Origin: Actinomycetes bacterium
Lineage (GTDB): Bacteria; Actinomycetota; Acidimicrobiia; Acidimicrobiales; Bog-793
Direction: 5' to 3'
Length of the DNA stretch: 64,000 bases
Assembly (NCBI GenBank): GCA_021797795.1
Contig: JAJZZB010000001.1
Span: 10,775-74,774, forward strand
Each line of letters opens with the position of its first letter. The first letter of the stretch is position 1. The notes beneath the pieces are model-generated. The model did no database searches. It saw nothing but the letters and a program-made list of their open reading frames with translations, and was not told the DNA's origin. The position numbers and the translations under genes are program-made. Of the stretch, positions 4,282 through 30,640 are shown piece after piece.

Positions 4282-4873
4282 TCACCTCCCGGCGGCCGGC
4301 GAGCGCCCTGCCGAGGGTGAGCTCGTCGGCGTACTCGAGATCCCCGCCGACAGGCAGCCCGCTCGCGATCCTCGTGATGCGGATGCCGAGCGGTCCGAGC
4401 AGGCGGGCGAGGTACATCGCCGTCGCCTCTCCCTCGAGGTTCGGGTTGGTGCACAAGATGACCTCGCTGATGCGGTCGTCCGCCAGGCGTTCGAGCAGGT
4501 CCCGGACCCTCAGCTGCTCCGGCCCGACCCCCTCGATGGGGTTCAGGGCGCCCCCGAGCACGTGGTAGGTGCCGTGGAACTCCCGCGTCCGCTCGACGGC
4601 GACGATGTCACGGGGGTCCTCGACGATGCAGAGGACGGTCGGGTCGCGTCGGGAGTCGTCGCAGATGGCGCACAGCTCGCCTTCTGAGACGTTGAAGCAG
4701 CGTTCGCACAGGCGGATCCGCTCTTTCACCTCGGCGATCGACGAGGCCAGCCGCAACGCCTCCTCCTTCGGGACCTCGAGGAGGTGGAAGGCGATCCGCT
4801 GGGCGGACTTCGGTCCGACGCCAGGGAGTCGGCCGAGCTCGTCCACGAGCTCCTGGATGGGTCCGGCGAACAT
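4274..4873 (-). CDS. recR: recombination protein RecR
   Basis: N-terminus [24 protein letters not shown], a Cys4 zinc finger ([16 protein letters not shown]) and a Toprim-like C-terminus. Confidence 0.95.
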
Positions 4874-4879
4874 CTCGTC

Positions 4880-5446
4880 CTAGGAGGGGTCTTCCGACTC
4901 GTCCTCGCCGGACTCGTCCTCGCCGTCCTCGACCTCTGGGGGTCGGGCCGTGCCGAGGATCTCACCGACGAGGTTGCCGAGATCGCCGAGACCTGCGAGC
5001 GGGCCCGCCCCCGCGCTCACCCCGCCGAAGAGGCTCCCCATCATCGCCTCGAGGTCGAGCCCCGGGCCGAGAAGGCTCTCGGCGGCGCGCTCGCGCACGC
5101 CGAGCGCCTCGGCGAGTGCCTGGCGCATGGCGGCGAGGAGGAGATCCTCCAGCATGCCGACGTCGCTCGGGTCGACGACCTCCGGAGAGATATTGACCGC
5201 CGTCACCTCGAGGTCCCCGGTCAGCACCACCTCGACGGCTCCCCCGCCGGCGCTTCCTGTCACCGTGGCGTGGCCGGCCTCCTCGGAGGCCTCGTCGAGC
5301 TGCTGGCGTGCCCGCCCGAGCAGCTCCCCGAAGCCGGAGAGGTCTCCCATCGAGGGGAAGCCCCAGTCGGGCTGCTGCTGCAGCTCCGCGCCCTGCTCCG
5401 GGTCGTCTCGGCCCTCGGGCGGCGTGGCGCTCTCGTCGGCGGTCAT
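4880..5446 (-). CDS. YbaB/EbfC family nucleoid-associated protein
   Basis: The core [33 protein letters not shown]...LEDLLLAA is typical of YbaB. ATG 5446 overlaps the dnaX stop (ATGA). The C-terminal tail is acidic. Confidence 0.85.
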
Positions 5447-20845: not shown

Positions 20846-20931
20846 GGAGGGATGCGAGAGTGGCCGAATCGGGCGGTCTCGAAAACCGTTGTACGTCCTG
20901 CGTACCGTGGGTTCGAATCCCACTCCCTCCG
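20846..20931 (+). tRNA. tRNA-Ser (anticodon CGA)
   Basis: Hand-folded. Acceptor GGAGGGA/TCCCTCC; anticodon loop CTCGAAA; a long variable arm; T-arm GTGGG-TTCGAAT-CCCAC; discriminator G. Confidence 0.9.
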
Positions 20932-20935
20932 CTCG
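20924..20935 (+). repeat. left copy of direct repeat TCCCTCCGCTCG (tRNA 3' end, attL-like)
   Basis: An identical 12-mer occurs at 22657-22668. Confidence 0.55.
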
Positions 20936-20953
20936 CTCGCTCGCCGGCCGGTG

Positions 20954-20981
20954 GTGGCTGGCTGGCGAGCCAGCCAGCCAC
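20954..20981. repeat. perfect inverted repeat GTGGCTGGCTGGC-GA-GCCAGCCAGCCAC
   Basis: Read directly from the sequence, 23 nt downstream of the tRNA. Confidence 0.7.
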
Positions 20982-21012
20982 GTGCGTGGGGTGTTGACAC
21001 ATCGATCACCAG

Positions 21013-21789
21013 GTGTTGGCTTGGCAGTTCAGCGACCCGCGGGCGGTCCGCGATGACTGGAGCCCCACGGGACAGCATTGGCTCATGCAATCCTCCAGGC
21101 GATGCGGATGGCTGGTCACGACCTCTGGCCTTCCCTGCGAGAACATCGTGGCCGAGGGGAGCACGCATTGCGCGGCGGGGCACCCAGTCGCGCCGACAAC
21201 AACAGGGCCGACATCAGGTGAACCACTCGCGAAGATGTCAACTGGTCTTCCCGACGTGGGGACTGTCCTCAGCTCTCCGGACAGGGGGTCTCGGATGGGG
21301 AAAGGCGAGCCCACCGGCAGCGCTCGGAGCCCTTCGCGCGACATCGCAGAAATGGTCGTCTCTGGTGAATTGGAACGCGTGTCACCTAACCCGAGGTACG
21401 TCGAGCAACGCCTAAGGGAGGCGGACGAGTCCCTGAAGGCAGCGCAGATGATCCGAGAGCTCGAACACAGCTCTATTACGGCAAGCTACGACGCCTCCAG
21501 GTTTGCGATCGATGCCCTAGTGAACTGGGAGGGGTATCGGGTACCCAACAGGCCTGGTGCCCATCAGTCGACGATCAAGTTCGCCGAGGCGAGGCTAAGC
21601 GGAGTCATGTCAGCAGAAGAGATAGCTGGCTTGGACACCCTCCGCACCCTGCGCCATGCCATCGAGTATCCCAACCCGACGAGACCGCCTGCGCCTGACC
21701 CGAAGGGCTCAGATGTCAGCGCCGCGATCGAGCTTGCCAGAAGAACGGTCGCCGCTGTGAAAGCGGAGATCAAAACGCCGCGTCAGTGA
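21013..21789 (+). CDS. HEPN-like domain protein with Cys/His-rich N-terminal extension
   Basis: The C-terminal ~130 aa resemble HEPN helices (ASYDASRFAIDALVNWEGYRV...GAHQSTIKF...LDTLRTLRHAIEYPN). The N-terminus has RRCGW..GLPC..(12)..HCAAGH. The start is uncertain: GTG 21013, ATG 21085, or later. Confidence 0.55.
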   Translation: MLAWQFSDPRAVRDDWSPTGQHWLMQSSRRCGWLVTTSGLPCENIVAEGSTHCAAGHPVAPTTTGPTSGEPLAKMSTGLPDVGTVLSSPDRGSRMGKGEPTGSARSPSRDIAEMVVSGELERVSPNPRYVEQRLREADESLKAAQMIRELEHSSITASYDASRFAIDALVNWEGYRVPNRPGAHQSTIKFAEARLSGVMSAEEIAGLDTLRTLRHAIEYPNPTRPPAPDPKGSDVSAAIELARRTVAAVKAEIKTPRQ

Positions 21790-22396
21790 GGCCCCTTACC
21801 GACTGCCCCTCTCCGGCAAAGGGAAGGGACAGTCTGACAAGCGGATTCTTCTTCAGCTCAGCGATGAACTGATCCGTCGAGCTCTTCCACTCGCCGGACG
21901 ACACGACATAGGGCTGCACGTCCATCAAAAGCCTCCTCGAGACAGTCGACAGAGCGGCCCCGACCTCCATGACGCTGGCAGTCCCCACTACGACGACGTC
22001 GACATCGTGCGGCACCGGACCGGTCTTGCCCGCGTGACGCGCCGCCCAAGAGCCGAAGATGTAAGCGTCCTCGACGCCGGGCACCTCTGAGAGCGCCTCT
22101 GCGACGTAGACGTAGGGCCCGTAGGTGACGTCGAGCAGGCGAGCGAGTGGGGCGACTTGAGGGTGATCCCAGTTGACACCCACGAGATGGTTTCTCCCCT
22201 GCACCGTCACGGTTAGGTAGCCGTAGCTCGCCAACCTGTTGACCTCGCGGGCGACCGTAGAGAGAGTCGCTTCGAGAGCCTGGGCGAGCTCGGATACCGT
22301 GCGCGACACACCGGAGCGACACAGCAGTTCTCCGAGGAGCCGCTCTTGGAGAGGAGAGCGGAAGATCGGTGCGATGCCCGGGGCCTTCACTCGCAT
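21770..22396 (-). CDS. winged-helix DNA-binding domain fused to a minimal nucleotidyltransferase (MNT-like)
   Basis: wHTH: RTVSELAQALEATLSTVAREVNRLASYGYL. NTase motif: IFGSWAARHAGKTGPVPHDVDVVVVG (GS...DxD). ATG 22396 is preferred, being 7 nt after a TATAGT -10. The ORF also opens at GTG 22405. Confidence 0.7.
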   Translation of the reverse strand: MRVKAPGIAPIFRSPLQERLLGELLCRSGVSRTVSELAQALEATLSTVAREVNRLASYGYLTVTVQGRNHLVGVNWDHPQVAPLARLLDVTYGPYVYVAEALSEVPGVEDAYIFGSWAARHAGKTGPVPHDVDVVVVGTASVMEVGAALSTVSRRLLMDVQPYVVSSGEWKSSTDQFIAELKKNPLVRLSLPFAGEGQSVRGLTDAAF

Positions 22397-22403
22397 ATAA
22401 TGC

Positions 22404-22433
22404 ACTATAACTGGCGTTTATCGTCACTGTCAA
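22404..22433 (-). promoter_or_regulatory. near-consensus promoter (TTGACA-18 nt-TATAGT) giving a probable leaderless MNT-like transcript
   Basis: The minus strand reads CCCTTGACAgtgacgataaacgccagtTATAGTgcattatATG. The -10 ends 7 nt before ATG 22396. Confidence 0.5.
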
Positions 22434-22656
22434 GGGAGCCGCTCGCCAAGGCCGGATGCTTATGCATCCTTGGCGGCCAGTTTCTGTGAGCCTCCTGAGA
22501 AATTCTCCACGCGATGGCGGCGAAGTTTCCACGCGCTCCTACCAGGACTTCTGTCGGAAAGGAAGCCAAACCGTGCAGCGGACGGTTCTCCGGCCGACCA
22601 GCGTCTGCCCTGGTCACGAGCGCCACTTGTCAACACCCCGCTCGGGGGTGTTTACA

Positions 22657-22668
22657 TCCCTCCGCTCG
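22657..22668 (+). repeat. right copy of direct repeat TCCCTCCGCTCG (attR-like)
   Basis: Identical to 20924-20935. It is embedded in a tandem duplication of CCGCTCGGGGGTGTTTACA (22638-22656 and 22662-22680). Confidence 0.55.
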
Positions 22669-23000
22669 GGGGTGTTTACAGGAGCGACCACCGGCGAGGC
22701 TCCCGCTGGTGGCCCCGGGCGCGGACCCTCTCGCCGCGGCGGGCCGGGGGCACGAGCAGGACGCGGCGCCCGCCCCGGGCCTCTCACCGAGAGGGTCCGC
22801 CCCTCGACCGGCGCCGGGCCGGCTCCCAGAGAGGCGGCTCGCCTCCGGCCACCGCGGGCCGGGCCGCCGCACGATCGGGCTACGGTGCCGGTCAAGCCGG
22901 TGGTTCTCCGTAGCCTCGTCGCGGTGCTGTCGAGTAACACCCTGGGCTTGGGCTCCCCGTCCCCTGATACGCCGCCATCGGGCGCGGCAGACTCGCGCAC

Positions 23001-25760
23001 GTGAGCCTTCGCTCCACGACCTCGCATCCTGCCGAGCTCGTGCTCGACGCCGTGCCCGACGCCCCGACCGCCGCCCGGCACTACGTGCGGGCGGCGCTCG
23101 CCGGCCTGTCCCAGGACACCCTCGAGTCGGCGCAGCTCATCGTCACCGAGCTGGTGGCGAACGCCTACCTCCACGGCGCCCCGCCGATCGTCGTGCGCCT
23201 CACCCGCTCGGACGGGCGGGCCCGTCTCGAGGTCGCCGACACCGGACACCTTCTCCCAGTCGAGACGCGACCGTCGCCGGAGTCGACGACAGGGCGCGGC
23301 CTCTCCCTCGTCGCTCAGCTGTCGTCGGCCTGGGGAGTCGATCTCGCTGCCGACGGAGGAAAGGTGGTGTGGGTCGAGCTCGGTGAGGCCTCCGACGCCG
23401 GGCCGCTCCCGAACGGGCCCCGGATGGACGTGCCGTCCATGCTGAACGCCCTCGCCCCGGACGCGTCGGTACCGCGCTACGTCGTCCGTCTCGGTTCGGT
23501 GCCCACCGAGCTCCTTGTCGAGGCCAAAGCCCACATGGACAACGTGGTGCGAGAGCTGCTCCTCATGCAGGCGGCCGAGTCGATCACCGGCGTCGAGCTC
23601 CCGGCTCCGATGGCAGAGCTGGCGGCGGTCGCCACCAGAGAGTTCGTCGAGGCACGCGCCGAGATCAAGCGCCAGGCACTGGCCGCCGCCGCGCGGGGCG
23701 AGGCCGTCACCGAGCTCGAGCTCCATCTCCCGCTCTCCGCCGCAGGTGCCGGTGAGCGGTACCTCGCCGCCCTCGACCAGGCCGACCGGTACGCGAGAGC
23801 GGCGCGACTGCTCACGCTGGCGCCGCCGCACTCCCACCGCCTGTTTCGTGAGTGGTACGTGCGTGCTCTCGTCGAGCAGCTGCGGGCGGCGGCCGCGGGA
23901 CAGGAGGTGCCGGTCCCGCGGCCCTTCCCGCAGCTCCTCGCCGAGGAGGCCGACCGCCTGTCGGTGTTCCAGGTCGCCTGGCACCGGCTCCAGCTGCTGC
24001 AGAAGGTGACGGCCGAGCTGACCGGCACGCGCTCGGTGCAGGAGATGGCCGAGGTCGTCACACGCGCGTCCGGCCAGCACCCGGGCGTCGTCTCGTCACG
24101 CGTCTACGTGCTCACCCGGGGGCGCATCCTCCGTTCGCTCGCCTTCAACGGCGAACCCTTCGAGGAGCGCCACTACGAGGAGTTCCTCCTCGGTGAGAAC
24201 CTCCCGGCGGCGGTGGTGGCCCGGACCGGCGTCCCCGAGTCGCTCCGGTCGCTCGCCGAGATCTACGAGCGGTTCCCGGCCCTCGACGGTTACTACCCCG
24301 ACGAGCGCAGCCTGCACGTGGTCCCCCTCGTCGTCGAAGGTCGTGTCATCGGCGTCTTCTCGCTCACCTTCGTCGGGGGCGAGATCAACGACGACGCCCA
24401 GGTCGCATTCGTCCACGCCGTCGGGAACGTCCTCTCCCACGCGCTCGGCCGAGCCCGCGCCGCCGAGCGGGCCGAGACCGAGCGGCAGCGGCGTCTGATG
24501 CTGCTCACGGCGCAGCTCGACGTGCTGACGGGAATCGTCGGCGGGCAGCCGCTCGTGGACGCCCTGGGCGCCCTGCTCGCCGCCGTCGAGGGGGTCTCCG
24601 CCGATGGCGTGCTTGCCTCGATTCTCCTCCTCTCCGAGGACGGCCTGCACCTGCAGCACGGGTCCGCCCCGAGCCTTCCCCGCTTCTACAACGCTGCGAT
24701 CGACGGTGTCGCCATCGGCCCGGCCGTCGGTTCCTGCGGGACCGCCGCCTACCGCCGCCGACGGGTGATCGTCGAGGACATCGCGACCGACGCCCTCTGG
24801 GCCGACTACCGGGAGCTGGCGGCATCCGCAGGGCTCCGGGCATGCTGGTCGACCCCGATCTTCGGTTCCCGTGGCCAGCTGCTCGGGACCTTCGCCATGT
24901 ACTACCGCCAGCCGCAGCGCCCCGCACCGGCAGATCTCGCTCTCGTCGACGTGCTGGTCCGTACTGTCGGGACCGCGATCGAGCGCTCGCGAGCCGACCA
25001 GGCACGCGAGCAGGCGATCGCCGCCGAGCGGGAGGCCGCCCTCGTCCTCCAAGAGAGCCTGGTCCCGGCGGTCCCTGCGTCCCTCGGTCCGGTCGCCCTC
25101 GAGGCCCGCTACCGCGCGGGCGACCCCGGTGTCCAGGTGGGCGGCGACTGGTTCGACGCGGTCGACGGCCCGAACGGGACGGTGCTCGTCGTCGGCGACG
25201 TGCAGGGCCACGACCTGAACGCCGCCGCGGTGATGGGCCAGCTCCGCACCGTCGCCCGGGCGGCAGCCGGCGAAGGCCAGTCGCCTGGTGCCATCCTCGC
25301 CAGCATCAACCGCTACCTCGAGCGTCTCGACTCCGACCTCCTCGCGACGGCCGTGGTCGTCCGGCTGGAGGACGACCAGGGTACGGCCACGATGGCGAGC
25401 GCCGGCCACCTGCCGCCGGTGCTCGTTCGAAGGGGGGTGTCGGGTGCCTGGCAGGCAGAGGAGGTCGTCGCCAAGACCGGCCTTCCTCTCTCGATCGGCC
25501 ACTCCTGGCCCGAGAGCGCGACCGTCCTCCCGGCCGACAGCGTGCTCCTCCTCTACACAGACGGCCTCGTCGAGACACGCTTCTGGGCTCTCGACGAGGG
25601 GCTCGGCATGCTGTGCTCCGTCCTCGAAGCCCTGCCGCCCGACGCTGGGCTCACCGAAGTCCTCGACGCCGCCCTCGACCTGCTGCCCACCGGGTCCCGC
25701 GGCGACGATGTGGCGGTCCTCGCCGCCTCGAGGTCGGGGGTCCCCGCCGTCGCCCCGTGA
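23001..25760 (+). CDS. multidomain regulator: RsbW-like HATPase_c + GAF domains + PP2C/SpoIIE phosphatase
   Basis: N-terminus TELVANAYLHG...GRGLSLVAQLSSAWGV...GKVVWVEL. The middle region is GAF-like. The C-terminus carries PP2C motifs GGDWFD, VVGDVQGHD, YTDGLVE. Confidence 0.8.
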   Translation: MSLRSTTSHPAELVLDAVPDAPTAARHYVRAALAGLSQDTLESAQLIVTELVANAYLHGAPPIVVRLTRSDGRARLEVADTGHLLPVETRPSPESTTGRGLSLVAQLSSAWGVDLAADGGKVVWVELGEASDAGPLPNGPRMDVPSMLNALAPDASVPRYVVRLGSVPTELLVEAKAHMDNVVRELLLMQAAESITGVELPAPMAELAAVATREFVEARAEIKRQALAAAARGEAVTELELHLPLSAAGAGERYLAALDQADRYARAARLLTLAPPHSHRLFREWYVRALVEQLRAAAAGQEVPVPRPFPQLLAEEADRLSVFQVAWHRLQLLQKVTAELTGTRSVQEMAEVVTRASGQHPGVVSSRVYVLTRGRILRSLAFNGEPFEERHYEEFLLGENLPAAVVARTGVPESLRSLAEIYERFPALDGYYPDERSLHVVPLVVEGRVIGVFSLTFVGGEINDDAQVAFVHAVGNVLSHALGRARAAERAETERQRRLMLLTAQLDVLTGIVGGQPLVDALGALLAAVEGVSADGVLASILLLSEDGLHLQHGSAPSLPRFYNAAIDGVAIGPAVGSCGTAAYRRRRVIVEDIATDALWADYRELAASAGLRACWSTPIFGSRGQLLGTFAMYYRQPQRPAPADLALVDVLVRTVGTAIERSRADQAREQAIAAEREAALVLQESLVPAVPASLGPVALEARYRAGDPGVQVGGDWFDAVDGPNGTVLVVGDVQGHDLNAAAVMGQLRTVARAAAGEGQSPGAILASINRYLERLDSDLLATAVVVRLEDDQGTATMASAGHLPPVLVRRGVSGAWQAEEVVAKTGLPLSIGHSWPESATVLPADSVLLLYTDGLVETRFWALDEGLGMLCSVLEALPPDAGLTEVLDAALDLLPTGSRGDDVAVLAASRSGVPAVAP

Positions 25761-29896: not shown

Positions 29897-30640
29897 GTGA
29901 CGTCGTCGCTGACGTTTCTTGGCACCGGCAACTTCCTTGCCCCTCCCGGCCGCTACTGGAACAGCTTCCTCGTCGAAACGGAGGCTCTCAGCGTCCTCGT
30001 CGAGCCCTCGCCGACGGCGCTCCCGAACCTGCGCCGGGCAGGCGGCAGCGCAGCCGACCTTGACGTCGTGATGATCTCCCACTTCCATCCGGACCACACC
30101 TTCGGCTGGCCCTTCTTGCTCCTCGAGCTCGCCGAGTCGCAGCGCTCCGAGCCGCTCGTGGTCGCCGGGCCTCCCGGCGTCGAGGCGTTCCTCTCCGAGA
30201 TGATGCAGCTCGGCTCGCTGACCGGCATCGAGGACGAGGCGCGCCACCACCCGGGGCTCGCCTTCGTCGAGGCCGACCCGTCCTCGACCGGGCAGTCGGC
30301 CGGGCCCCTGGCCTTCTCGGCGGTGAGGGTCGAGCACGTCCCGGAGCTCTCCTGCTTCGGCTACCTGCTGGAGCTCGGCGGTCACGCCCTCGGCTACACC
30401 GGGGACGTCCATCCGTGCCCCGGGCTCGACGAGCTTGCCGGGCGCGCCGACACGCTGGTCGTCGAGTGTGCCGCGATGCACGCCTCGCGCTCGCACATGG
30501 ACGTCGCCTCGTTGCGGTCGCTCGCCGAGCGCTTCCCCTCCTGCAGGATGGTCGCCACCCACCTCGGCGGGGAGGTCGAGGCGGCGATGCTGCCCGGGGT
30601 CGAGGTCCCCGACGACTTCTCCCGGATCGAGCTCGCTTGA
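29897..30640 (+). CDS. MBL-fold metallo-hydrolase
   Basis: ISHFHPDHTFG (HxHxDH) motif. Confidence 0.75.
   Translation: MTSSLTFLGTGNFLAPPGRYWNSFLVETEALSVLVEPSPTALPNLRRAGGSAADLDVVMISHFHPDHTFGWPFLLLELAESQRSEPLVVAGPPGVEAFLSEMMQLGSLTGIEDEARHHPGLAFVEADPSSTGQSAGPLAFSAVRVEHVPELSCFGYLLELGGHALGYTGDVHPCPGLDELAGRADTLVVECAAMHASRSHMDVASLRSLAERFPSCRMVATHLGGEVEAAMLPGVEVPDDFSRIELA

Follow-up and report, generated by a model that had tools for sequence, protein, structure and literature searches.

A PDC-M05-type nucleotidyltransferase-HEPN gene pair in a convergent, overlapping arrangement on a tRNA-Ser islet

Few toxin-antitoxin-like pairs are as abundant as HEPN/MNT modules. In the 64-kb stretch of DNA analysed here (the window), two genes that resemble such a pair face each other on opposite strands, which raises the question of what the two proteins are, and of how a module of this kind would work when its genes converge. 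A sequence-only reading of the DNA had described a plus-strand open reading frame (ORF) at 21013-21789 and a minus-strand ORF at 21770-22405 that converge with a 20-bp overlap. Both ORFs are present as described when their positions are checked, and the 20 bp at 21770-21789 are common to the 3' ends of both genes. The two genes are carried by an islet of 1.7 kb that was acquired horizontally and integrated at a tRNA-Ser gene; its GC content is low, at 0.63 against 0.72 outside. The convergent layout is 100% identical in contigs of several independent samples and assemblies, and misassembly is ruled out as its source; within-species polymorphism is uninformative as a gauge of selection, as the islet is 100% identical in all samples. 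The coding features are as follows.

21013..21294, plus strand: in-frame open stretch ahead of the HEPN gene (the 'Cys/His extension'), placed outside the protein by homologues and codon GC
21295..21789, plus strand: HEPN-fold protein of 164 aa, PDC-M05B type (PADLOC, homologues, AF2/Foldseek)
21770..21789, both strands: 3'-end overlap, coding for the last residues of both proteins
21770..22396, minus strand: wHTH (ArsR-like) plus minimal nucleotidyltransferase (NTase), 208 aa, PDC-M05A type (PADLOC, homologues, AF2/Foldseek)

No terminator-like structure is found in 21770-21789, where the fold z-scores against shuffles are -1.46 and +0.09 on the two strands. On the NTase side, the AF2 model predicts disorder over residues 198-211, the tail of the 211-aa ORF.

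The minus-strand protein had been read as a winged-helix domain joined to a minimal nucleotidyltransferase, and both the conserved motifs and the AF2/Foldseek matches bear this out. In the AF2 model (pLDDT 87.8), Foldseek finds that the N-terminal half resembles SmtB/MarR repressors and the C-terminal half the MNT antitoxins 8xeo/8xeh/7bxo/2rff. All of the catalytic G-S...D-x-D residues are present (G115, S116, D131 and D133 in 208-aa numbering), and FGSWAAR and D131-x-D133 are invariant or nearly so in 153 relatives. HTH_20 is matched by 31 of 35 NTase relatives, Pfam NTP_transf_2 and Polbeta match the NTase only below threshold, and more generally the Pfam scores of both window proteins lie under the gathering thresholds; an NCBIfam search gave nothing meaningful. 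The 208-aa protein P0002 is 100% identical to the minus-strand protein. The start has to be moved, as the GTG at 22405 lies within a -10 hexamer, and the start conserved in the family is ATG 22396.

For the plus-strand protein the label HEPN-like also holds. Its AF2 model has a pLDDT of 94.7, the top 20 Foldseek matches of the model are all HEPN structures, and the best PDB matches are 2hsb, 1ufb, 1wol and the sacsin HEPN, followed by HepT toxins. Pfam HEPN (PF05168) aligns to the window protein over model positions 1-115 of 117 with 17.4-19.1 bits, against a gathering threshold of 22, and is matched by 30 of 50 homologues (best E 2.8e-13). A profile of the family matches the PDB HEPN 9xbd, which carries 'LRNRSDY', at 5e-6. 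DUF86/HepT (PF01934) has no match in the window HEPN or in any of the 50 homologues. In total 181 HEPN relatives were found by phmmer, and the 164-aa protein P0001 is 100% identical to the window HEPN.

The proposed active site fares less well. RTLRH had been taken as a catalytic-type R-x3-H motif, but His121, at the polar position next to the invariant Arg120, is Asn in 93 of 115 family members (81%), and it is Tyr125 that holds the position of the canonical His. R69, R82, H90 and R120 are invariant in 115/115 sequences, as is Y125, which adjoins the Arg motif; these and G88 are the family-invariant residues, and all six are kept in the window protein. The motif in the window is R120-H121-A-I-E124-Y125, with the invariant Tyr as the fifth residue past Arg120, and the canonical R-x4-6-H (R-phi-x3-H) is absent, there being no His 5-7 residues after R117 or R120. 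Judged by motif register, the family motif R117-x2-R120-[N/H]-x2-[E/D]124-Y125 would place a Tyr at the catalytic His position of HepT. RNase activity is uncertain for this reason: the HEPN is without the canonical R-x4-6-H dyad, and has a Tyr where the His would be.

An N-terminal extension of about 100 aa with a zinc-ribbon-like pattern had also been proposed. The corresponding product would be a 258-aa HEPN-like protein with a Cys/His domain of this type and R-x3-H as catalytic motif; the ORF is indeed open from GTG 21013, and a short similarity (SGxPCE..E.S..CA, 9/17 residues) is seen between the in-frame upstream regions of the window and of L092, a convergent relative. Such a protein is nevertheless extremely improbable. 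Alignments with HEPN homologues begin only near residue 105 of the 258-aa ORF, residues 1-94 have no match among 5.8 billion proteins, Pfam finds no zinc-ribbon domain, and the GC contents of 21013-21294 at codon positions 1/2/3 (0.61/0.64/0.72) are not coding-like. The stretch is not conserved in the convergent relatives L087 or L092: L087 is without it, and in L092 the SGxPCE-like residues come directly after a stop codon with no start codon ahead, for which reason the similarity was judged to be chance or residual DNA similarity. The frequent Asn at position 121 likewise tells against the catalytic motif. Gene callers start the HEPN gene at ATG 21295, with AGGGGG 7 nt upstream, and the 'extension' most probably belongs to the untranslated DNA ahead of the gene. 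The possibility of a small third gene at this place was considered and rejected: tblastn with the 78-aa ORF called in the relative L088 matched neither the window nor L092.

The classification as a HEPN-MNT-like pair, with a wHTH-nucleotidyltransferase and a HEPN partner, is supported by their folds and by PADLOC, and the latter also gives the pair a name. The NTase matches PDC-M05A (PDLC04370) with E = 2.6e-42, residues 1-189 aligning to positions 1-187 of the 194-position model, and the HEPN matches PDC-M05B (PDLC04378) with E = 2.2e-9 and eight more M05B models with values of 4.4e-8 to 0.016. The pair is thus an already catalogued PADLOC candidate defence system, PDC-M05, an entry that the sequence-only reading missed. 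As in the window, M05A consists of an ArsR-like HTH and a KNTase-like nucleotidyltransferase, and M05B is a HEPN protein (PMC12988326; bioRxiv 10.1101/2024.09.26.614923); a cold-seep paper annotates M05A as 'NT_KNTase_like' (bioRxiv 10.1101/2024.09.26.614923). The genes of PDC-M05 are adjacent, as here, whereas those of the window are on opposite strands with 3' ends overlapping by 20 bp. In a survey of archaeal and bacterial genomes, PDC-M05 ranked in the top ten of defence and candidate systems by prevalence (PMC12988326). Protection of E. coli B against at least one phage was seen in a single heterologous test, with a representative unrelated to the window (bioRxiv 10.1101/2024.09.26.614923), and the antiviral role is called unconfirmed (PMC12988326). 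Other assignments were rejected. AbiE/MenAT would require a different architecture from a wHTH fused to a minimal NTase with a HEPN partner, and neither PADLOC nor Pfam gives an AbiE or DUF1814 match at E <= 1; a CBASS-type assignment has no support in PADLOC.

NTase and HEPN homologues are neighbours in about 150 actinobacterial loci, and in 145 of about 160 independent NTase loci the HEPN homologue lies immediately downstream on the same strand. A failure of the two genes to co-occur in other genomes had been named as grounds for giving up the pairing; the co-occurrence is very strong. The 145 PDC-M05-related loci are co-directional with the NTase first, under one leaderless promoter with a palindromic operator, whereas the window is convergent, and the layout is atypical, as had been said. 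Convergent order is confined to the window and its three closest lineages (L087-89, L090-91 and L092), with 3' overlaps of 17-62 bp. In neighbour-joining trees with 200 bootstrap replicates, the convergent clade is supported by 198/200 for the NTase and recovered with only 95/200 for the HEPN. Going by these trees, the convergent loci are a monophyletic sub-lineage with an inverted HEPN gene. Among the next-closest HEPN homologues, P0068 and P0069 lie in co-directional pairs and P0067 is on a contig too short to show the order, and the clade could not be enlarged. It is the gene order that is new here: the locus is a convergent, overlapping variant of a catalogued pair. Inverted repeats flanking HEPN were looked at as the cause of the inversion, but the only ones present are weak (72%) and have an arm within the NTase gene, and were judged to be chance.

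An inversion of this type has consequences for the promoters, and the features ahead of the NTase gene are as follows.

22394..22421, minus strand: operator-like quasi-palindrome (ATAA..N..TTAT) that covers the -10 box and reaches to the start codon
22404..22433, minus strand: sigma-70-type NTase promoter, TTGACA - 18 nt - TATAGT, 11/12 consensus matches
22445..22474, no strand assigned: palindrome of 30 bp, GCCAAGGCCGGATGCTTATGCATCCTTGGC, shortly ahead of the NTase -35 box, read from sequence

This promoter is the sole match in 2.4 kb, where shuffles give a mean of 0.2. Its -10 box ends 7 nt ahead of ATG 22396, which implies a leaderless NTase mRNA, and a TANNNT box stands 5-16 nt ahead of the start codon in 129 of 142 family promoters (family consensus TTgac.cTtC..aTAa..gG.AgATAT.TTC.agTTATG). 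The wHTH domain presumably binds the quasi-palindrome, which is more degenerate in the window than in relatives: L087 and L090 have perfect 9-12-bp arms at the same position. Of the family promoters, 46% hold an inverted repeat whose arms measure 7 bp or more, a share that falls to 19% in control regions and to 11% in shuffles. A leaderless promoter with a palindromic operator throughout the family fits autoregulation by the wHTH domain. No operator common to the NTase promoter and the HEPN upstream region was seen. The earlier argument that each gene must have its own promoter follows from the geometry, and for the NTase it is borne out, but a search for one ahead of HEPN gave no sigma-70-like site, be it in the window, in L087 or in L092. 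The 362 nt upstream of HEPN (20933-21294) hold no TANNNT -10 box, and no TA dinucleotide at all. Stretches just as long without a TA are frequent in the host genome, and the absence alone is unremarkable. A strong hairpin also stands behind the tRNA, and expression of HEPN is uncertain.

Given a HEPN gene with no recognisable promoter, one could regard the locus as a decaying relic, in which an accidental inversion cut HEPN from its promoter and left a silent gene; the pair would be what is left of an earlier integrative element, carried along by hitch-hiking, with an overlap that is incidental. The islet has no integrase, and the operator palindrome of the window is eroded. In one strain variant, an unrelated sequence with an IS-like transposase N-terminus is inserted in HEPN at 21416, so that the gene is interrupted in one subpopulation, and in L092 it is the NTase and not the HEPN that is frameshifted. 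The longer history of the clade makes this reading very doubtful, however. Four lineages have kept the convergent layout while their proteins diverged to 37-57% identity. In the clade, each of the two genes has a dN/dS of about 0.2-0.35 (dS being close to saturation), and by this measure both are under purifying selection; every family-invariant residue is kept, and the HEPN model is, as given above, very confident. The convergent module has also moved as a unit between unrelated genomic contexts, being found in four of them: the tRNA islet, an integrase/excisionase element, IS elements, and the neighbourhood of Eco57I/N6_Mtase restriction-modification genes. The module also occurs on plasmids.

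For what the two proteins do to each other, the type VII HepT/MntA systems (Shewanella SO_3166/3165 and the HEPN-MNT pairs of Aphanizomenon and Legionella) offer the first comparison. They too combine an MNT-fold NTase with a HEPN-fold partner, and by Foldseek the window NTase resembles MntA/MNT (7bxo, 6m6u, 8xeo, 8xeh) and the window HEPN resembles HepT (7ae6, 7bxo). MntA oligoAMPylates a Tyr (PMC13000451; PMC7641770), and this residue type, in the helix of the Arg motif, is conserved here as well. Gene order and predicted Tyr nucleotidylation have been described for HEPN-MNT pairs (PMC3710099), and the MNT-first order of type VII is shared by the wider family of the window, while the window itself is convergent and overlapping. 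There are further differences: the window HEPN is of a PF05168-like branch and not of the DUF86/HepT branch of type VII, the His of R-phi-x3-H is replaced in the family by an invariant Tyr with an invariant His90 elsewhere, and the window NTase has an N-terminal wHTH, for which no counterpart was found in the MntA literature consulted. A second comparison is with the archaeal and thermophile PF05168 MNT-HEPN dyads AF_0298/2hsb, TT1696/1ufb and ST0689/1wol, which are the best structural matches (TM-score on target 0.74-0.84) at a sequence identity to the window HEPN of only about 20%. PF05168-type HEPNs have an acidic residue in place of the His and a conserved His elsewhere that is proposed to compensate (PMC3710099), and the window HEPN shares this type of motif. 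The window differs from these dyads in the wHTH fused to the NTase, in its actinobacterial lineage and in belonging to a convergent sub-lineage.

The best explanation of the whole, which we hold with a little better than even confidence, is a PDC-M05-type module with the NTase as antitoxin or regulator and the HEPN as effector, the latter uncoupled by inversion. The NTase would repress its own promoter through the wHTH domain, and would neutralise or control its HEPN partner by nucleotidylation. The invariant Tyr125 would be the most likely acceptor, because MntA of type VII oligo-AMPylates a Tyr next to R-phi-x3-H. The HEPN would be an effector that arrests growth and, if it is an RNase, would use Arg120 together with the invariant His90 in place of the canonical His. 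Hints that it is the toxin side come from the insertion at 21416 and from several relatives with split or fragmentary HEPN genes beside an intact NTase. The frameshifted NTase of L092 fits badly with a simple picture of an indispensable antitoxin, unless it is a long-read sequencing error.

By the inversion HEPN would have lost its link to the autoregulated promoter. As no terminator separates the genes and strong hairpins stand at both islet borders, transcripts from the strong NTase promoter would then cross HEPN in antisense, and those of HEPN would cross the NTase gene in the same way. Transcriptional interference or an RNA duplex could provide a second layer of control over the effector. 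Carried further, this leads to a hybrid circuit, in which HEPN is held both at the RNA level, by antisense or interference, and at the protein level, by nucleotidylation. The leaderless NTase mRNA would extend as a full-length antisense RNA of HEPN and the HEPN transcript likewise across the NTase gene, and the effector would be freed when transcription from the NTase promoter collapses, for example in phage-induced host shut-off. We consider this circuit quite unlikely. Its geometry, and only that, is shared with type I toxin-antitoxin systems such as yonT/SR6 of B. subtilis, where convergent units have complementary 3' RNA ends (PMC5848175; for the general type I definition, PMC6563280). Such systems pair a small non-coding antitoxin RNA with a toxin that is a small hydrophobic peptide, whereas the window encodes two folded proteins and its RNA-level control is hypothetical.

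A different division of labour can also be imagined. In kanamycin nucleotidyltransferase the C-terminal domain is HEPN-related, and this can serve as a model for a bipartite nucleotidyltransferase in which the HEPN is a non-toxic subunit for substrate binding or regulation. A third substrate (a small molecule, an RNA or a phage protein) would be nucleotidylated, the wHTH would have no role beyond regulating expression, and it would not matter for function which way the genes point. The canonical HEPN His is absent here, with an invariant Tyr in its place, and HEPNs exapted as substrate-binding partners of MNTs are typically without RNase residues (Anantharaman et al., PMC3710099); the 'NT_KNTase_like' annotation of M05A (bioRxiv 10.1101/2024.09.26.614923) agrees with this, and a sub-lineage that tolerates uncoupled, convergent expression argues that tight antitoxin-first co-expression is not required. 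On the other hand, the invariance of R69, R82, H90 and R120 in all 115 sequences suggests an active or specific binding site and not a passive scaffold, and a compensating His elsewhere has been proposed for PF05168-type HEPNs (PMC3710099). The NTase-first order of the family, with a DNA-binding domain on the first gene, is what is classically seen with antitoxins. Islets, integrative elements and plasmids carry the module, which also occurs beside restriction-modification genes, its HEPN was disrupted by an insertion in one strain, and one PDC-M05 representative gave phage protection (bioRxiv 10.1101/2024.09.26.614923). Taken together we regard the bipartite enzyme as fairly unlikely.

PDC-M05 is a widespread system with an uncharacterised mechanism, for which the analysis offers three testable handles: the family-wide leaderless promoter with its operator, described above, and the two that follow. 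Tyr125, at the catalytic His position of HepT, and His90 are targets for mutagenesis that could tell apart a role in RNase activity, as AMP acceptor or in substrate binding. In the rewired clade, effector and regulator are on opposite strands with overlapping ends, yet both are under selection. The clade is thus a natural comparison for whether antitoxin-first co-transcription is needed in toxin-antitoxin systems that are neutralised by an enzyme, and can show whether antisense transcription replaces co-transcription.

The borders of the islet, with the hairpins referred to above, are made up as follows.

20846..20932, plus strand: tRNA-Ser, anticodon CGA (ARAGORN; Rfam tRNA 51.7 bits), its 3' end being the left islet border
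20924..20935, plus strand: 12-bp direct repeat TCCCTCCGCTCG, left copy, candidate attL, overlapping the 3' end of the tRNA
20935..20981, no strand assigned: GC-rich hairpin(s) just inside the left border, with a perfect 13-bp inverted repeat at 20954-20981
20988..20999, plus strand: border motif GGGGTGTTGACA, one of four window copies
22628..22680, no strand assigned: right border, with an inverted border-motif pair, tandem GCTCGGGGGTGTTTACA, the right copy of TCCCTCCGCTCG and a hairpin

The 12-mer TCCCTCCGCTCG has only two copies in the 64-kb window, a number reached in 0 of 100 shuffles, and the right copy at 22657-22668 is the candidate attR. The two tandem copies of GCTCGGGGGTGTTTACA are at 22640-22656 and 22664-22680. 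The four copies of GGGGTGTTGACA, at 20988, 22628 (minus strand), 22645 and 22669, are all at the islet borders; 0.19 matches are expected in the window, and 0 of 100 shuffles reach four. The left border is also visible in a strain-variant contig (L179) that is 100% identical up to 20933 and divergent beyond. An empty tRNA-Ser site was not found in a sister strain, and the DNA of L179 after the tRNA differs from the right flank of the islet. Rfam finds only the tRNA, and no other non-coding RNA in the islet. At the left border, 20933-21010 folds with -44.6 kcal/mol (z = -2.9), and the hairpin(s) there could act as an insulator or terminator, both after the tRNA and for minus-strand read-through; the hairpin at the right border is strong on both strands, with z = -3.7 on the plus and -4.5 on the minus strand. 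In other respects the locus is an ordinary small mobile-element cargo at a tRNA gene.

The gene pair is already known, both as a member of a catalogued candidate defence system and as part of the well-known HEPN/MNT theme. In PADLOC-DB, the minus-strand winged-helix nucleotidyltransferase (NTase) matches component A of PDC-M05 at 2.6e-42, and the plus-strand HEPN protein matches component B at 2.2e-9. PDC-M05 consists of a nucleotidyltransferase (ArsR-like HTH plus KNTase-like NT) and a HEPN protein (PMC12988326, bioRxiv 10.1101/2024.09.26.614923). There it is reported to be toxin-antitoxin-like and archaea-enriched. Its antiviral role is called unconfirmed (PMC12988326); in one heterologous test, a cold-seep representative shielded E. 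coli B from at least one phage (bioRxiv 10.1101/2024.09.26.614923). What is new is an architecture, convergent with overlapping 3' ends and conserved within one defined sub-lineage, along with regulatory and active-site features at family level that render the system testable. The locus contains the following elements:

20846-20932: tRNA-Ser(CGA), just upstream of the plus-strand ORF
20924-20935 (tRNA 3' end) and 22657-22668: 12-bp direct repeat TCCCTCCGCTCG, bounding the segment
20988-20999, 22628-22639 (minus strand), 22645-22656 and 22669-22680: 12-nt motif GGGGTGTTKACA, four copies in the window, all at the islet borders
21013-21789, plus strand: HEPN ORF, converging with the minus-strand ORF
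21770-22405, minus strand: NTase ORF, converging with the plus-strand ORF
22433-22404, minus strand: sigma-70-like NTase promoter (TTGACA, 18 nt, TATAGT), the sole such site in the 2.4 kb scanned

Both ORFs are present as the sequence-only reading described them, with the 20 bp at 21770-21789 common to their 3' ends. The layout recurs with 100% identity in contigs of several metagenome and MAG assemblies made independently, GCA_027417635.1 and GCA_021816795.1 among them, and is therefore not an assembly artefact. The best start of the HEPN gene is ATG 21295, which is preceded by AGGGGG and is the one used by gene callers (164 aa, P0001); ATG 21352 is too late, because the conserved N-terminal helix (IAEMVV...LERV) starts ahead of Met114. 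When the 258-aa ORF was searched against 5.8 billion proteins, P0001 was the sole match. With the 164-aa form as query, a complete HMMER scan over 1.84 billion representatives gave 181 relatives; among the 150 matches listed, most are ~100-200 aa long, with the alignment starting around residue 15-20. The 94 in-frame codons upstream of ATG 21295, earlier proposed as a Cys/His N-terminal extension of ~100 aa, did not hold up: neither a homologue nor a Pfam domain matches this stretch, its GC by codon position does not look like that of coding sequence, and conservation is absent from the two further convergent relatives compared. For the NTase, the start common to all relatives is ATG 22396 (208 aa, P0002), and GTG 22405 falls within the -10 hexamer.

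The folds also bear out a HEPN-MNT-type pair. The NTase family is well conserved, actinobacterial and ~200 aa long, with members labelled 'ArsR family transcriptional regulator' or 'predicted nucleotidyltransferase', and with IFGSWAAR, P-x-D-x-D-V and one Trp as invariants. In the AF2 model (pLDDT 87.8) the N-terminal winged helix matches SmtB, CzrA and MarR, and the C-terminal alpha/beta domain matches the MNT antitoxins 8xeo, 8xeh, 7bxo and 6m6u, as well as 2rff; the model shows disorder at residues 198-211 of the 211-aa ORF. For HEPN, AF2 gives a helical bundle with very high confidence (pLDDT 94.7). The top PDB match is AF_0298 (2hsb, TM-score on target 0.84), followed by the HEPN proteins TT1696 and ST0689 and then by sacsin HEPN and HepT toxins. 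The window protein itself scores 17-19 bits to Pfam HEPN, below the cut-off of 22; PF05168 is matched by 30 of 50 homologues, and the family profile matches PDB HEPN 9xbd at 5e-6.

Every one of the 115 partner HEPN proteins has R69, R82, G88, H90, R120 and Y125 (164-aa numbering); 113 keep R117, and position 124 holds E or D without exception. The 'RTLRH' that had been taken for a catalytic-type R-x3-H motif is R117-x2-R120-H121. Its His is not catalytic, since position 121 is a variable polar residue after the key Arg (Asn in 93/115, His in 16/115), and an extended Zn-ribbon protein with such a catalytic motif is hardly credible. Judged by motif register, the invariant Tyr125 would fill the catalytic-His slot of the HepT motif R-phi-x3-H. 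This agrees with PF05168-type HEPNs as described by Anantharaman et al. 2013 (PMC3710099), where an acidic residue often replaces the His, with 'a conserved H elsewhere', and where a conserved C-terminal Tyr is considered a possible nucleotidylation site. The MntA antitoxins characterised so far oligo-AMPylate a Tyr adjoining R-phi-x3-H (PMC13000451).

On balance the pair is somewhat likely to be a toxin-antitoxin or abortive-infection-type module, in which the wHTH-NTase controls a HEPN effector by nucleotidylation. The NTase would be an autoregulating antitoxin or controller that neutralises a toxic HEPN by modifying it, most likely at Tyr125 by analogy with type VII systems. In the convergent clade, the inversion would uncouple the two genes at the level of transcription, and antisense control through RNA may come on top. 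The pair could also form a bipartite KNTase-like enzyme, with HEPN as a non-toxic subunit; we consider this unlikely.

Co-occurrence of homologues, set beforehand as a refuting test, was examined by scanning all six frames of 80 genome and 80 metagenome loci of NTase relatives with HMMs for the two families. The two genes are near-obligate neighbours. A HEPN homologue follows directly downstream on the same strand in 145 cases, with gaps typically of 20-40 bp in the subset for which gaps were listed. The scan found no HEPN homologue beside the NTase in 17 cases. In 7 of these a contig ends near the gene, and several of the remaining ten hold fragmentary HEPN remnants. The convergent layout is indeed atypical, occurring in four lineages only.

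Lineages with convergent NTase and HEPN genes
Window species: reference; 3' overlap 20 bp; tRNA-Ser islet
P0004 lineage (L087-89): NTase 52% identical to window; 3' overlap 62 bp; phage-type integrases and an HTH_17 excisionase-like gene
P0003 lineage (L090-91): NTase 59% identical to window; 3' overlap 17 bp; IS110 and DDE transposases
P0066 lineage (L092): HEPN 45% identical to window; 3' overlap 17 bp; beside Eco57I/N6_Mtase genes, NTase frameshifted

In neighbour-joining trees the convergent NTases form one clade in 198/200 bootstraps; the convergent HEPNs also form a clade, with support of only 95/200. Within this clade both genes are under purifying selection (dN/dS ~0.2-0.35, with dS near saturation). 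The simplest reading is a single ancestral HEPN inversion, after which the convergent cassette was kept by selection and moved as a unit between mobile contexts. NTase relatives are also found on large plasmids of Mycobacterium, Rhodococcus, Curtobacterium and Tsukamurella and on one phage-like contig. In L092 the NTase (4440-5052) is split into two frames beside an intact HEPN, which may reflect either true pseudogenisation or an indel error of long-read sequencing. Some loci carry a second NTase copy, full or fragmentary, near the first (L019 3173-3588, minus strand; L041 7626-8552; L050 3012-3587; L053 3535-3795), and in L041 the second NTase-HEPN pair is complete.

The -10 box of the NTase promoter ends 7 nt ahead of ATG 22396, so the mRNA should be leaderless. 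Across the family (L007-L172, 50 nt upstream; window 22394-22433) TTGAC lies at about -35 and the -10 box 6-7 nt before the ATG, with the consensus TTgac.cTtC..aTAa..gG.AgATAT.TTC.agTT-ATG; in 129 of 142 unique promoters a TANNNT precedes the start codon by 5-16 nt. A palindrome is centred on the -10 box, its right arm ending at the start codon. Inverted repeats there with arms of at least 7 bp occur in 46% of promoters, whereas the share is 19% in control regions and 11% in shuffles. Such a pattern would be expected if the wHTH domain represses its own promoter. Arms of 9-12 bp, perfect or with a single mismatch, are seen in L087, L090, L022, L039 and L051; the window's own palindrome is degenerate. 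A 30-bp palindrome, GCCAAGGCCGGATGCTTATGCATCCTTGGC, also lies directly upstream of the -35 box (22445-22474).

No promoter-like site was found for HEPN in the window, L087 or L092, and the 362 nt between the tRNA and its ATG contain zero TA dinucleotides, although such TA-free runs are common in the host genome. That the pair is a decaying relic whose HEPN gene is silent is nevertheless improbable, given the purifying selection on both genes. Long mutually antisense transcripts are plausible, because nothing in the overlap region folds like a terminator (z = -1.5 and +0.1) and strong hairpins lie at both islet borders (z = -2.9; -3.7/-4.5).

The islet is 1.73 kb long and carries no integrase. 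Its GC is 0.63 against 0.72 in the flanks (GC3 0.70-0.77 against 0.90), and TCCCTCCGCTCG has only its two bounding copies within the window. A tandem 24-nt duplication resembling an att site is also present at the right border. Strain-variant contig L179 (ERZ27233564) is 100% identical to the window up to 20933, at the tRNA-Ser 3' end, and then diverges into DNA matching neither the islet nor the sequence to its right, so the cargo at this tRNA site seems to differ from strain to strain. Another strain variant, contig L178 (ERZ27237515), is identical up to 21416, inside HEPN, and continues into unrelated DNA opening an ORF, MPVPRKSPYVLDLSTDQRRELEARARRYTSPYRVVVRAKIVL, that looks like an IS transposase N-terminus; this suggests an insertion disrupting HEPN in a subpopulation. 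A 182-aa plus-strand ORF (22456-23004) called in some assemblies starts in the islet, spans the right border repeat and abuts a GAF/SpoIIE/HATPase gene (23001-25760); this high-GC ORF is probably spurious. Some 7 kb downstream of the islet, a metallo-beta-lactamase-fold gene (~29897-30640; 18603-19346 in L001) has a precomputed Pfam match to Anti-Pycsar_Apyc1 (PF23023) and is likely a housekeeping MBL-fold hydrolase.
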